This document shows positions 31,559 to 46,808 of a DNA stretch of 64,000 nucleotides, one piece after another (the stretch's first letter is position 1; every line of letters starts with the position of its first letter). Origin of the DNA: an uncultured delta proteobacterium (GTDB lineage Bacteria; Myxococcota; Myxococcia; Myxococcales; Myxococcaceae); assembly GCA_963771175.1 (NCBI GenBank), contig CAVYSY010000058.1, positions 32,001 to 96,000 of the forward strand. Direction: 5' to 3'. A program made the translations under genes and the position numbers. The notes below the pieces were generated by a model that saw only the letters and a program-made list of their open reading frames with translations, was not told where the DNA came from and ran no database searches.

Positions 31559-32848
31559 ATGCGCCCTGCACGCTCCCGCCTTCCGTTGCTGCTCGCCCTC
31601 CTGCTCCCCCTGGGAGCGAGCGCATTCTCGGTCCCCGATCACGAGACGATGACCCGGGCGTCCGTCGCTGCCGCGCTCAGGTCGGGCGTCCTGCCCCAGC
31701 TCGCGGCGCACCAGTCGACCGTGGTGGAGGGGAGCCGGGCGGAGGACCTGAACCTCCCCGTCAAGTGGACCGGCTATCACCACTTCTTCCACCCGGGCAC
31801 GTCGCTCGACTCCACCTTCCGCAAGGACTCCGGGGCCCGCGTCCGCGCGCTGTGGGCAGAGGCCGAGGAGGCCGCGAGCAACGGCGACCTCGCGCGGGCC
31901 TTCGACCGCGTCGGCCACCTGGTGCACCACATCCAGGACATGGCGGTGCCCATGCACGTGGTGCCGGTGATGCATGGGCTCTCGGACCGCTTCGAGCAGC
32001 ACACGGCGAGGCAGGCGCTGCTCTCCGTCGGACGGGAGCTCACGCCGCTCTCCGGTGAGGAAGCCCAGCTCGCGCTGGCCCGGGAGACACTGGAGGTGGT
32101 GCGCACGGGCTCGCTGCCGGTGGAAGGGGGAGCCATCCCCTGGAGCGCCTTCTGGGCCGAGCCCACCTCCCGCGGGCCGGGCACGTTCGGCGGCTATGGC
32201 GTGGTGGGCAACGCCTTCGATTCGACGGAGGTGCGCTGGCAGGGGCGATCGTGGACGGCGGACCCCTCGGCGTATGAGGAGTTCGTGGACGCGCGCGTCG
32301 AGTCGGCCGTGGCCTACTCCCGCGCATTCCTCCTCTGGGCGACGCGGCGTCTCACCACCCTGGCGGAGGCCCGCGAGTACGCCGCGGCCCCGCGGTGGAA
32401 GCCCTCTCCCCTGCTCGGCCTCGAGCTGTTGGGAGGAGCCGCCACCTCGCTCCGCGGCGCCATACCGGTGGCGGGCGCGCGAGCCCTGTTTCCCCTCCCC
32501 TGGGCCATGGGGCTCGCGGCCGGCTACGCACGGGCCCTGGGCCATCCACTCTCGGGAGCGGGGGCGGGGGCCTGGTCACTCTCGCTGCTCTCCCCTCCCC
32601 TGCTGACTGCGCGGCTCGGCTACTCGCGGGGGCTCGACCTGCGCGCCACGGTGGGCGCGGGCCTGTCCTCCCTGGGCGGGATGCTCCACCCGGAGCTGCC
32701 GCTCGGCCTGCGTCTCCACACCCTGCTCGGTCGAAGGGTCTCCCTCAGCGCGGAGGCGCAGTACCGGGCCTTCGCGCCCCAAACGGCCCCCTGGTCGCAA
32801 GGCGTCACCCTCACCGTGGGCACCGGCTTCACTTGGGGTGACAACTAG
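31559..32848 (+). CDS. Secreted Zn-dependent phospholipase C/S1-P1-like domain plus C-terminal beta-rich domain
   Basis: Signal ASA|FSVPDH, ED...HHF, GHLVHHIQDMAVPMH, DRFE; amphipathic beta C-terminus ending TGFTW. Confidence 0.6.
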   Translation: MRPARSRLPLLLALLLPLGASAFSVPDHETMTRASVAAALRSGVLPQLAAHQSTVVEGSRAEDLNLPVKWTGYHHFFHPGTSLDSTFRKDSGARVRALWAEAEEAASNGDLARAFDRVGHLVHHIQDMAVPMHVVPVMHGLSDRFEQHTARQALLSVGRELTPLSGEEAQLALARETLEVVRTGSLPVEGGAIPWSAFWAEPTSRGPGTFGGYGVVGNAFDSTEVRWQGRSWTADPSAYEEFVDARVESAVAYSRAFLLWATRRLTTLAEAREYAAAPRWKPSPLLGLELLGGAATSLRGAIPVAGARALFPLPWAMGLAAGYARALGHPLSGAGAGAWSLSLLSPPLLTARLGYSRGLDLRATVGAGLSSLGGMLHPELPLGLRLHTLLGRRVSLSAEAQYRAFAPQTAPWSQGVTLTVGTGFTWGDN

Positions 32849-43062: not shown

Positions 43063-43136
43063 GTCGAACAATCGGCTTCGCGGATACCCCAACCCGGCCC
43101 GGGGCGGCGGGTTTGATTCCCGCCACCCCTCACAAC

Positions 43137-44289
43137 TCAGCCCTTGAGCACGGCGATGGGCGTGAGCCGCAGGATGGGCGTCACCAGCTCCGCCTCGTCC
43201 TCCAGCACCTCCGCGATGTCGCGGTAGGCCGCCGGGGCCTCTTCCACCAGGTCCTCCACCCGGCCCCGGTCGAACACCACCCGGCGCAGCGAGTGCTCCA
43301 GCGCCGCCGGGCGGATGCTCTTCCGGGCCTCCCCGCGGTGAGCACCCGCCCCGCCCCGTGTGAGCAGGAGCCGAAGGCCCGCGGCTCTCCCCGCCCCTCC
43401 ACCAGGTACGAGGCCGTCCCCATCGAGCCGGGGATGATGCCCGTCTGCTCCCGGCGCGCAGCCCCACCGCCCCCTTGCGGTGGACGAGCAGCACGCGGCC
43501 CAGGTGCGTCTCCTCCGCCACGTGGTTGTGGTGGACGTCCACTCCCGGCTCCGGCTCGCACCCGAGCGCCTCGGCCAGCACCTCCACCGCGCGCGCCGCG
43601 AGGCGTCGCGGTTGGCTCGGGCGAAGCGGCAGGCCCACTCGATGTCCGCGAGGCAGGCGGCGCCCTCGGGAGTGTCGGTGCGCAGGCCCGGCAACGAGCC
43701 CTCTCCCTTCGTGACCGCCACCCGCAGGTGGTGTGAGGCGATGGCTCCGCCGATGCCCCGCGAGCCCGAGTGGATGAGCAGCCACAGGTCACCCCCGGCG
43801 TCCCGGTCCAGCTCGAGGAAGTGGTTGCCGCCCCCGAGCGTGGCGAGGTGCCTCGGCGCGAGCCGCTCCCAGTCCTTCTGGAGCCGGTGGGTGGAGAGGC
43901 TCGCGGCCTGGAGCTCGGGCGGCAGCGGCAGGCCCGCCCCCCGGTGGATGGCATCCCCCACTGGCACCCGACGGGCCAGTGCCGCCAGCAGCCGCTTCGA
44001 GCTCCCCCGCCCGAGCGACGCGGCCGGGAAGGCGAAGCGGCGGGCGCTGACGCCGCACCCGAGATCGCCTCCCAGCGCGCCCGGAACCACGGTGCGCTCG
44101 GTGGCGAAGACGGTCCCCACGGCCACGCCCTGCGAGACGTGGACGTCCGGCATCGCCGCCACGTGCTCCACCACGTAGGGCTGGCTGGCGATGTGCTGGA
44201 GCTGCTTCACCGCGCCCGGTGGCACCTCGCGCGCCCAGGCGAGGATGGGAATGGCCCCCGGCGGGCTCTCGAGGCACCCGGGGCATCAT
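43137..44289 (-). CDS. rtcB: RtcB-family 3'-phosphate RNA ligase (several indels)
   Basis: MPDVH, GDLGCG, GGGNHFLE, HSGSRG, HHNH, HRKGA, PGSMG, SHGAGR, EEAPAAY, ...VLKG*. Confidence 0.92.
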
Positions 44290-44699
44290 GACTCACCCCC
44301 TTCCTCGTCCGGCACCATGCGGGGTGCCACGCCCACGCAGACGAAACGCAGGTTCGGGACGCGCTTGAGGTTCAGGCCCAGCGCGAGCTGCGAGCGGATG
44401 AAGCCACTCGCGCGCTCGAGGGCCGCCTCCACCGGAGCGGGCCCGGACTCCTGGCGCTCGGGAGGGAGGGTGAAGCCGATACGGGCATGGCGGCCGTCCG
44501 GGGACAGCTCGAGCGTCGTCACCACGACGCCTTCGAGCAGCGGGTCGGACAGCTCGCCTCGGAACAGGAGGGACACCTCCTCGAAGAGGGCGGACTGGAG
44601 GCGCAGGTGGCGCGCCGGAACGGAGGTTGCTTCGGACGAAAAGGAATCAGAGCCCGCGCGCCGGTGCGACGCGCGGGAGCGGCGATGCTTCGAGCTCAT
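44286..44699 (-). CDS. Ribosome-binding factor A paralogue
   Basis: RLQSALFEEVS...ELSDPLL..VVVTTLELSPDGRHARI...ASGFIRSQLA..LNLKRVPNLRF (RbfA KH-fold pattern); ATGA overlap with rtcB. Confidence 0.8.
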   Translation of the reverse strand: MSSKHRRSRASHRRAGSDSFSSEATSVPARHLRLQSALFEEVSLLFRGELSDPLLEGVVVTTLELSPDGRHARIGFTLPPERQESGPAPVEAALERASGFIRSQLALGLNLKRVPNLRFVCVGVAPRMVPDEEGGES

Positions 44700-44834
44700 G
44701 GAGCGAACGGTTCCCTGGACGCCGCGCCCGGATGGGGGCACGGCGCCTCGATTCAGGAGAAGACGAGGCTCCACGTCGGCGCGCGAGCGCCGGAGTCAGC
44801 GGGTCCGTTCGACGAGGAGACGGAACGCGCCCGG

Positions 44835-44888
44835 TCACACGGTCAGCGACGTGGAGAAACCCGAGATACCGTTTTGCACACGTCCCAT
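44835..44888 (-). CDS. Putative 17-aa leader peptide MGRVQNGISGFSTSLTV
   Basis: GGAGGTG Shine-Dalgarno just upstream of ATG 44888; stop TGA 44835-44837; followed by hairpins then rbfA-like gene. Confidence 0.45.
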   Translation of the reverse strand: MGRVQNGISGFSTSLTV

Positions 44889-44983
44889 GGCACACCTCCC
44901 GCCGCACCGTCCATGTGTCAACGCCCTGGCGACAACCCCTCGGAACGATTGAACCCGAGGGCGGCGGACAGCAGGATGACGGC

Positions 44984-45407
44984 ATGGTCGACAAACTGAT
45001 CCTCAGTGACGAGGAATGGCGGAAGCGTCTGACACCCGAGGAGTACCAGGTGCTGCGTCACCACGGCACGGAGCGTCCCCACACCGGCTGCTTCGTCGGC
45101 ACGAAGGACCCCGGGACGTACGTCTGCGCCGGCTGCGGCAACCCGCTCTTCAGGCGGGCACGAAGTTCGAGTCGGGCACCGGCTGGCCCTCGTTCACCCA
45201 GCCCCTCCAGGCCGGACGCGGTGACCGAGTACCGGGATGTCTCGTACGGGATGATGCCGCACCGAGGTGCGCTGCGGCCGGTGTGATGGCCACCTGGGAC
45301 ATGTCTTCCCCGATGGCCCGCCGCCCACCGGGCTGCGCTACTGCATGAACTCCGTGGCGATGAAGCACGTGCCGGAAGGTCAGCCCCTCCAGCTCGTCAC
45401 GAAGTGA
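44984..45407 (+). CDS. msrB: Peptide-methionine (R)-S-oxide reductase (frameshifted)
   Basis: [44 protein letters not shown]. Confidence 0.93.
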
Positions 45408-45408
45408 G

Positions 45409-46303
45409 TCAGCGGGCCGAGCGCGCGGCCTCGGCCAGCCGCTTCTGCGACAGGCTCAGGTAGTTCTCGTCCATGTCGATGCCCACGTAGCGGCGGCCCA
45501 GCTTCAGCGCCGCCACGCCCGTGGTGCCACGATGCCGTTGAACGGGTCCAGCACCAGCGCGTCCTCGGGGGTGCTCGCCTCGATGACGCGCTCCAGCAGC
45601 GCCACCGGCTTCTGCGTGGGGTGGCTGCCGTGCGCCTTCTCCTCGCTTGCGCGGCGCCGTCATGCGTCCACACGCGGCCGGACTCGTCGGCGGCCGAGCT
45701 CCTCGTCGCCGGTCTGCGGCAGCGCCCACACGTCGCGCATCTGCTTGCCGCCGTTCTCCGCCTTCATGCTTGCGCGTAGTTGAACGTGTGCTGCAGCTTC
45801 GCGGCCGGCTTCGGCGAGCGCCCAGATGAGGATCTCGCGTCGAGTGCGTGAAGTAGCGGCACGCCAGGTTGCGGGCTCGCGTTGGGCTTGTACCAGGTGA
45901 CGGTGTTGAGCAGCTTGTAGCCGAGCTTCTGCATCGCGAAGCCGACCGAGAAGATGACGTGCTGCGTGCCGCTCACCCAGATGGTGCCGGTGGGCTTGAG
46001 CACGCGCTGGCAGGCCTTGAGCCACGCGGTGGTGAACGCGTGGTCGTCCTCGACGCCGCGCGACACGTCCCAGCCGCCCTTGTTCACCGCGGCGCGCTTG
46101 CCGCTCTTGCAGGTGAAGCCACCGTTGGACAGGAAGTACGGCGGGTCGGCGAAGACCATGTCGAACGTTCCGGGCTCGAACTGCTCGAGCAGCGCCAGGC
46201 TATCGCCCTGGTAGAGCCGGTACGCGTCGCCACGGGCGAACTCGCTATCGCGCAGGGTACGCGGGACAAGCTTCAGGGCAGGAGCTGCGGCTTCCGAGGA
46301 CAT
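45409..46303 (-). CDS. Orphan N6-adenine/N4-cytosine DNA methyltransferase, beta class (frameshifted)
   Basis: FADPPY first, then HPTQKP and VLDPFNGxGTT; no adjacent endonuclease. Confidence 0.88.
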
Positions 46304-46434
46304 CTCGCCTCCGTCAGGGGTCGTCGTGACGGCGCGAATGTGCGGGCAACATTCTGCTACGTCCAATTTCTGGCCTGTAGCACCCTGAAATTTGACGAGG
46401 AACGCGAGCTCCAACGCGAGCCCCTGAAACGCCG

Positions 46435-46482
46435 CGAGCACGGTGGGAGGACCTCTCGTGGAGGCCTCCGACACCGTGCTCG
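46435..46482 (-). terminator. Long hairpin downstream of rpmE
   Basis: CGAGCACGGTG...CACCGTGCTCG with inner GGAGG/CCTCC stem. Confidence 0.55.
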
Positions 46483-46511
46483 GCGGGTACTACGAAGCTG
46501 TGCGGAAGAGA

Positions 46512-46808
46512 CTAGGCCTTGGCCTTCTTGGCGGTCTTCTTCGCGGGGGCAGTGCCCTCGGCCGGAGCAGCGGCGGCACCCTCGGCGGGAGCAGCAGCCT
46601 CGGCGGCCGGCTTGGCCGCGTACTTCTTGCGGAACTTCTCCACGCGACCCGCGGTGTCGAGCAGCTTGTACTTACCCGTGAAGAACGGGTGGCAGTTCGA
46701 GCACACTTCCACCGTGAACGAGCCACGGGTGGACTTCGTCTCGACGGTGTTGCCGCAAGCGCAGGTGATGCGAGAGGGCGGATAGACCGGATGCAGATCA
46801 GGCTTCAT
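46512..46808 (-). CDS. rpmE: 50S ribosomal protein L31 (Zn-binding) with Ala/Lys-rich tail
   Basis: [13 protein letters not shown]...[21 protein letters not shown]. Confidence 0.96.

Follow-up and report, generated by a model that had tools for sequence, protein, structure and literature searches.

An RbfA-like paralogue coupled to an RtcB RNA ligase in Myxococcales: a candidate two-gene RNA-repair operon behind a leader open reading frame

The 64,000-nucleotide (nt) stretch of DNA analyzed here (the window; positions 32,001 to 96,000 of contig CAVYSY010000058.1, from an uncultured delta proteobacterium of the Myxococcaceae) carries on its reverse strand a gene for a small protein of the ribosome-binding factor A (RbfA) family, followed directly by a gene for an RNA ligase of the RtcB family. 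The two genes are linked and translationally coupled across three families of the order Myxococcales, an association that is strongly conserved, and they are kept and lost together. These observations point to an RtcB repair cassette with an RbfA-derived partner, of a kind already known with a ribosome-factor partner. Whether the pair forms a dedicated two-gene RNA-repair operon of myxobacteria, in which the paralogue docks on the cut 3′ region of 16S ribosomal RNA (rRNA) and RtcB reseals the break, is a question on which we stand evenly balanced.

The rbfA-like gene occupies positions 44286..44699 of the reverse strand (137 codons at 44289-44699 and a stop codon at 44286-44288), and its reading frame is unbroken in the window. 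The product scores 59.7 bits against the Pfam family RBFA (PF02033; gathering threshold 34.7), covering profile positions 1-90 of 105, in agreement with an earlier sequence-only reading that had described a 137-residue RbfA-like gene at this place. The same reading had put the gene outside the infB-truB context, and correctly so: the paralogue lies between a leader open reading frame (ORF) and rtcB, and the infB-rbfA-truB neighborhood is found on contig C32 with the other of the two RBFA matches in the genome. A check for a separate canonical rbfA identified it in this stronger match (112 bits), which passes the NCBIfam rbfA equivalog model TIGR00082 (106.5 versus a cut-off of 51.15) and is flanked, as judged by eye, by the C terminus of IF2, a small ORF, TruB, and S15. 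The C32 copy is the canonical rbfA, and the window gene is a second copy. In public annotation, the paralogue is named plainly “ribosome-binding factor A,” a label that hides the distinction between the two.

In alignments, the paralogue is composed of an Arg-rich disordered N-terminal tail and an RbfA-type KH core, where the chain ends without the canonical C-terminal extension. The tail (MSSKHRRSRASHRR..., ~10-30 residues) is present in all lineages and is worded differently in each. An AlphaFold2 model built from 25 orthologues predicts an α-β-β-α-β core spanning residues 23-125, with a predicted local distance difference test score of ~90, and disordered tails. All 21 Foldseek matches to this model with E ≤ 0.001 are RbfA, either free or on small subunits; the model compares with entries 7afq, 1jos, and 2dyj at template modeling (TM) scores, normalized to the target, of 0.82-0.84 and root-mean-square deviations of 2.0-2.3 Å, and 8bxa is also matched (TM ~0.8). 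The AXG motif and Phe78 of RbfA hold nucleotides G1530-A1536 of 16S rRNA in the exit channel (PMC8177701). In the paralogue, A98 and G100, followed by Phe or Tyr, are nearly invariant, being present in all but one of 25 sequences (L028 has no Gly there). As modeled, a type-II KH fold of the RbfA kind with the RNA-gripping AxG-aromatic motif retained fits an accessory protein directed at rRNA or at the 30S subunit. In a quick maximum-likelihood tree, whose canonical set came from the same order and whose root is arbitrary, 37 RtcB-linked paralogues are separated from 12 canonical RbfA sequences by one long branch (Shimodaira-Hasegawa-like approximate likelihood ratio support 100), and the paralogues group by locus lineage. 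The divergence of the paralogue from canonical RbfA is ancient. Three genomes of another family (G198, G097, and G178; loci L126-L128) contain two RbfA-like matches each, the second of which scores ~70 bits against the paralogue profile, is not beside rtcB, and may represent a third RbfA class.

The partner gene, rtcB, lies at 43137..44289 of the reverse strand, and the tetranucleotide ATGA at 44286-44289 joins the TGA of the paralogue to an ATG. The sequence-only reading had proposed an ATGA overlap with an RtcB carrying all catalytic motifs. The overlap is there and the motifs are all in the window DNA, but they are legible only across frame breaks: the frame that starts at the ATG at 44289 runs for 166 codons and matches nothing in Pfam, and RtcB profile positions 1-250, 253-303, 316-365, and 352-426 are spread over three frames rather than one ORF. 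The orthologues in relatives are single ORFs of 377-386 residues belonging to PF01139, the 3′-phosphate/5′-OH RNA ligases. An alignment of 25 of them with RtcB of P. horikoshii (1uc2/4dwq) and T. thermophilus shows that the metal-binding Asp, Cys, and His residues and the guanylylated His are conserved, with D75, C78, H156, H173, H255/H256, and H312 (in HGAGR) invariant, as are the motifs GGDLGCG, GGGNHF, H(S/T)GSRG, VHHNH, PGSMG, and SHGAGR. Judged by these residues, the RtcB partner is catalytically complete in relatives, and it belongs to a distinct clade of RtcB ligases.

Six RtcB loci are found in this genome, each in different company. On C52 (L079 3333-8726), the order is a phosphoribosyltransferase, an α/β-hydrolase fused to archease, a frame-broken RtcB, and an RNase T-like exonuclease. 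RtcB has RtcA as its neighbor on C36 and a tetratricopeptide repeat protein on C28, and no neighbor was noted on C26. On C31 (L082 3751-5966), the order is rsfS, rlmH (SPOUT), and rtcB; this 383-residue RtcB passes the PrfH-coupled model TIGR03073 (459.7 versus 271.8), though the genome has no PrfH match above cut-off (best 96 versus 166.65). The window pair itself, on C58, completes the set, and ribosome factors thus adjoin two of the six RtcB loci (C31 and C58).

The linkage between the paralogue and rtcB was surveyed in relatives. Among 41 related genomes, the paralogue is present in 15 of 17 of the same genus at 76-94% identity and in two other genera at 41%. Twelve of the 13 complete loci (L012-L024) have rtcB directly downstream as one ORF of 383-385 codons; in L024 (G017) it lies in two frames, and in G010 the contig ends within the paralogue. 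A second survey of one genome per species, which partly repeats the genomes of the first, yielded 30 loci from Archangium, Vitiosangium, Hyalangium, Cystobacter, Corallococcus, Pyxidicoccus, and Myxococcus, including M. xanthus. In 28 of these, rtcB is directly downstream, the others being one locus where it would be off the contig end and one deletion in G009. All 28 share a 4-nt overlap of stop and start codons, written ATGA in 27 and GTGA in one. When 301 genomes of the phylum were searched with a profile, the matches fell into two score classes; the tallies include the unpublished genome G224, on which none of the claims depends. At every one of the 28 best new loci, rtcB adjoins the paralogue, one match being internally gapped and another cut at a contig end. 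At 20 lower-scoring places, rtcB is adjacent in 14, including two further families of the order (G254 and G235; G268 and G290). Paralogue identity at the lower-scoring linked loci falls to 33-47% and RtcB identity to 53-68%, and the junctions are ATGA, GTGA, TTGA, or 11 nt of overlap; a premature TAG interrupts one paralogue. At the remaining six lower-scoring places rtcB is missing; five of these, with scores of ~70 bits, could be canonical RbfA or the third class, and the sixth is a remnant in G234.

The two genes are also lost together. In all eight genomes without the paralogue (G012, G007, G021, G073, G205, G212, G222, and G127; completeness 73-100%), the best RtcB match is 40-42% identical or there is none, and a match at 40-42% is another RtcB paralogue, as orthologues are at least 53% identical. 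Two remnants, in G009 (L061 2926-3400) and G234 (L132 2464-2979), result from independent events; each of them lost rtcB and the last paralogue strand in a single deletion, which left the paralogue fused to unrelated sequence. Within genera, the pair has been lost from four of the five g25 genomes sampled, with G259 as the exception, and from two genomes each in g27 (of 18) and in the genus of the window (of 17). These counts are not independent events, because the genomes of one family are related. The pair is chromosomal, and its inheritance within Myxococcales is vertical.

Upstream of the paralogue, a short leader ORF of 17 codons and a stop codon (MGRVQNGISGFSTSLTV), which the sequence-only reading had missed, is found at 44835..44888 of the reverse strand, behind the Shine-Dalgarno sequence GGAGGTG (44893..44899, reverse strand). 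The leader ORF is present in 22 of 22 close loci, with 17 codons in 17 of them and 25 codons in five Myxococcus loci, and in 14 of 14 distant loci, with 16-19 codons (24 in L136) and an ATG or GTG start. The alignment of the 22 close loci has GGAGGTG throughout, and the distant loci have it too, bar GGAGGTC in L124 and GAGGTG in L125. At all 36 loci examined, the Shine-Dalgarno sequence and leader ORF are located ~120-290 nt 5′ of the paralogue. The Val4 codon is GTG, GTC, GTA, or GTT, and Gly2, Asn6, Gly7, and Ser9 also vary synonymously, which argues that the leader ORF is translated. No Rfam family matches the leader. One second match to the leader motif in the genome, on C38, is an ordinary gene start and looks like chance; the motif is otherwise unique in the genome.

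Between the leader ORF and the rbfA-like start lies a structured leader (44700..44834, reverse strand), which contains GGGAACCGTTC at 44705-44715, a sequence complementary to leader-ORF codons 6-7 (AACGGT, 44868-44873). Across the loci, the middle codons of the leader are complementary to the 11-20 nt directly 5′ of the paralogue start, and the paired sequences vary by lineage: AACGGT/ACCGTT in the window and, elsewhere, GACGGT/ACCGTC, ACAGGTTCC/GGAACCTGT, TCAGATCC/GGATCTGA, GACAGGT/ACCTGTC, AAGGTTG/CAACCTT, and others. At least six contiguous Watson-Crick pairs can form in 23 of 36 loci, compared with a mean of 4.3 pairs in shuffled sequences. For 11 lineage representatives, cognate duplexes average -20.0 kcal/mol versus -17.2 ± 1.0 kcal/mol for permuted ones (p ~0.003), and pairing holds in 85% of the cells of a MAFFT alignment versus 21-61% when the helix is slid. 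RNAalifold gives a weak consensus for the leader alignment (-15.5 kcal/mol, with a covariation term of -0.47). We infer that this region is a candidate translation-attenuation leader. A strong hairpin of ~40 nt just before the GGGAACCGTTC motif is missing in two close relatives (L020/L053 of G011 and L022/L055 of G002), which suggests that this element of the leader is dispensable. Further upstream, a -35-like hexamer, TTGACA (44916..44921, reverse strand), is conserved 5′ of the leader. TGGCAC...TTGC-like strings were considered as a sigma-54 promoter of the type found at E. coli rtcBA and were rejected by eye, the GG-GC spacing being wrong.

Precedents exist for the resealing of 16S rRNA. 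Colicin-E3-cut 16S rRNA is repaired by RtcB2-PrfH (PMC9304027 and PMC13166195), and the MazF-cut 3′ terminus of 16S rRNA is religated by E. coli RtcB (PMC5416887). Within this genome, the RtcB behind rsfS-rlmH is a second case of company with ribosome factors. By analogy, the pair described here may function in repair of the 16S 3′ end. The paralogue would dock on small subunits cut in the 16S 3′ region, for example by colicin-E3-like or MazF-like RNases, keep the 3′-terminal fragment in place, and present the break to RtcB, which would reseal the 2′,3′-cyclic-phosphate/5′-OH ends, in the way that PrfH helps RtcB2 in enterobacteria. The sequence-only reading had likewise inferred an adaptor that brings RtcB to damaged 30S subunits, and two conditions that it set hold up: the gene is not the sole rbfA of the genome, and its linkage to rtcB is conserved. 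The leader ORF of 16-19 codons probably sets expression: its middle codons would pair with the paralogue start region, which would be opened by a ribosome that lingers on the leader, so that stalling raises expression, as in translation attenuation of the cat/cmlA type. A fuller version, in which a stall on the 17-codon leader unmasks an RbfA-derived clamp, the KH surface holds the severed 16S 3′ fragment in the mRNA exit channel, the Arg-rich tail probes the vacant channel, and the break is passed to the co-translated RtcB, is a tentative picture of a sense-and-repair circuit that we would sooner doubt than assert.

Several points weigh against this reading. The paralogue misses the TIGR00082 rbfA equivalog cut-off of 51.15 (42.3 for the window, 39.5 for G006, and 41.5 for M. 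xanthus locus L072). In E. coli, canonical RbfA relies in part on its C-terminal extension for 30S binding, and since the paralogue lacks this extension, its docking may differ. The partner RtcB is under every NCBIfam cut-off, including that of the PrfH-coupled model (148.2 versus 271.8). An RbfA-RtcB fusion was sought and none was found, the one longer protein (320 residues) having the RBFA domain alone; this is weak evidence. As for the leader, 13 of 36 loci have fewer than six contiguous pairs, among them all five Myxococcus loci, all four Corallococcus loci, and four others, and column-wise covariation of the helix is not above that of shuffles. In the window, a 45-47 nt gap at 44905-44909 (10-12 plus 35 nt versus G006 and G014), between TTGACA and the leader Shine-Dalgarno sequence, removes the -10-like hexamer of other Archangium; this gap looks real, since near-identical metagenome contigs span the place without gaps. 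Finally, we infer the contact between the paralogue and RtcB, the binding to the 30S subunit, and the RNA joined by the ligase.

Other explanations of the pair differ mainly in the RNA to which it is directed. The RbfA-like protein might be a general holder of single-stranded RNA ends or an activator of RtcB, resembling archease or a KH chaperone, that serves broken tRNA or mRNA rather than the ribosome. Conservation is limited to the KH core and the AxG-aromatic motif, both generic binders of single-stranded RNA; the absence of the C-terminal extension and the missed equivalog cut-off agree with such a role, as does the presence, in this genome, of dedicated helpers beside other RtcB paralogues (archease on C52, RtcA on C36). 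We nevertheless consider this rather unlikely: the Foldseek matches at E ≤ 0.001 are all to RbfA, mostly in small-subunit complexes, the residues that grip the 16S 3′ tail are kept exactly, and the Arg-rich tail resembles the channel-probing tails of ribosome rescue factors (discussion in PMC6514570). Alternatively, the ribosome could be the target in the absence of damage, with an alternative assembly factor and an RtcB that process or join rRNA precursors during normal or stress-time 30S biogenesis. RbfA itself is an assembly factor (PMC8177701), another RtcB of this genome is located behind rsfS-rlmH, and the pair is chromosomal and vertically inherited in the order. The pair is dispensable, however, with the repeated losses within genera given above, and a stall-sensing leader would suit a damage response better. 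Bacterial 16S maturation is also not known to include a ligation step. A role in biogenesis seems distinctly unlikely to us. That the adjacency is a historical accident of functionally untied genes is extremely improbable, given that the stop/start overlap is kept at paralogue identities as low as 33-47% and that both genes are absent in eight of eight genomes and were jointly deleted in two.

A further explanation concerns this genome only, namely that rtcB is a true, recently decayed pseudogene here and the pair is non-functional. Relative to five close relatives, the window carries +1 at ~44274, -1 at ~43603, +2 at ~43449-43458, and -1 at ~43338, that is, four uncompensated frame breaks in 1.15 kb, besides a compensated pair at 43995/44005; this species also lacks the promoter-proximal stretch, and the paralogue itself is unbroken. 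The breaks are not confined to rtcB, however. Versus G006, G014, G016, and G011, ~24 indels of lengths not divisible by three are packed into 43.13-46.34 kb, a patch of 3.3 kb that affects three unrelated genes, rtcB (seven), msrB (three), and a DNA methylase gene (~ten), whereas 46.9-54.5 kb is nearly clean, with isolated indels only, besides a repeat region. The essential rpoB (C25:96748-100856) is likewise in three frames (profile positions 3-950, 960-1080, and 1075-1238), and the C52 and C36 copies of rtcB are fragmented too; uvrA is whole in the same genome. Substitutions in the window rtcB are not elevated. Four public runs from two studies contain contigs at least 90% alike that lack the extra or missing bases of the window at all the places listed, namely 43449, 43995/44003, 44273 (where run X4 has no cover), 45256, 45531, 45768, 45773, 45819, 45837, and 45872. 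The deletions at ~43338 and ~43603 are not among these places; contigs spanning 43293-43757 carry four gaps, the expected number. Over 43120-46600, the X3 isolate contig differs from the window by 57 substitutions and 20 gaps (~98.4% identity). Because the runs are ~1.6% diverged and represent another strain, they do not prove error, and a small chance of very recent real decay of rtcB counts against a working pair in this genome. The indel:substitution ratio of ~1:3 in the patch, across three unrelated genes, together with the frameshifted rpoB, makes assembly error by far the likelier cause. We are confident that the frame breaks are assembly errors rather than gene decay, and a pseudogene is correspondingly improbable. 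More broadly, indel errors in a draft assembly can give a live gene the look of a dead one or let a broken gene pass as whole.

The surroundings of the pair are as follows. The window has a G+C content of 69% and derives from a 58-contig draft with a marker completeness of 81.7%. The neighbors of the pair are HEAT-like, WYL regulator, GFA, MsrB, DNA methylase, and L31 genes. A scan of neighboring ORFs showed no RtcA, RtcR, archease, or PrfH adjoining the pair, as the sequence-only reading had stated. Eight nucleotides past the rtcB stop codon, a G+C-rich hairpin (43101..43129, reverse strand) resembles a terminator without a clear U tract, and a comparable hairpin is found 3′ of rtcB in L012 and L013. 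Synteny with G006, G014, and G016 ends exactly at this hairpin (window position 43100), and the left flank, with its HEAT-like ORFs, WYL-domain regulator, and GFA, is elsewhere or absent in those genomes. A T-arm-like string at the synteny break was considered as a tRNA; ARAGORN finds none, and the element is read as a terminator-like hairpin. Single-base indel patches are observed in the window at 39.6-40.7 kb (a PGA_cap-type gene, by eye) and at 43.1-46.4 kb, where the SelR domain of MsrB is split over two frames and the DNA methylase domain likewise. Such patches could partly account for the low marker completeness.

Myxobacteria carry approximately six RtcB paralogues, and a conserved partner bears on how RtcB ligases find their substrates. 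For one of these ligases, the RbfA-derived partner suggests a concrete target that can be tested, namely the 16S 3′ end, the very place to which RbfA binds. If the proposal is true, an assembly factor has been re-used as a repair adaptor, and the sense-and-repair circuit, should it exist, would be a second, independently evolved answer to the problem solved by RtcB2-PrfH. The leader ORF suggests a simple route by which cells might sense translation damage. M. xanthus, which carries the pair, is a tractable and harmless model organism in which the proposed role can be tested. The sequence-only reading had not recognized this arrangement as described before, and a full-text literature search, as far as titles and the starts of abstracts reach, likewise found no link between RbfA and RtcB. 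Work on RtcB paralogues and RNA-repair neighborhoods, in the passages covered, says nothing of this pair; an earlier mention, especially in supplements, is possible.

To our knowledge, RtcB2 with PrfH is the sole established bacterial system that repairs cut rRNA in place. Similar to the window pair, it comprises an RtcB paralogue and a small ribosome-binding protein derived from a translation factor, encoded in a two-gene operon (PMC9304027, PMC13166195, and PMC6514570). The role of RtcB2-PrfH is the resealing of cut 16S rRNA in the small subunit, whereas for the window pair the same role is proposed only. The partner in the window is an RbfA-fold KH protein rather than a release-factor homologue, its RtcB falls under the TIGR03073 cut-off in a genome without a PrfH match, and its distribution is vertical within Myxococcales, with a leader ORF before the operon, in contrast to the sporadic occurrence of RtcB2-PrfH. 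The paralogue and canonical RbfA belong to one Pfam family and have in common a type-II KH fold and an AxG motif with an aromatic residue after it. The paralogue differs in scoring below the equivalog cut-off, in its long, fully supported branch (100%), in its Arg-rich tail and lack of a C-terminal extension, in its genomic context, and in being dispensable. The rtcBA-rtcR and archease-RtcB cassettes also combine RtcB and a dedicated helper gene in one operon, but the helper in the window is neither an end-healing enzyme nor a nucleotide-cofactor activator, and the neighbor scan and a by-eye inspection of the promoter revealed neither RtcR nor a sigma-54 arrangement beside the pair. The leader, in turn, is reminiscent of those of cat, cmlA, and ermC, with a short, well-translated ORF whose codons would be able to pair with the downstream start region. 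The pairing of the window type is long-range (100-250 nt apart) rather than a local hairpin, and Myxococcus and Corallococcus have a weak or interrupted helix.

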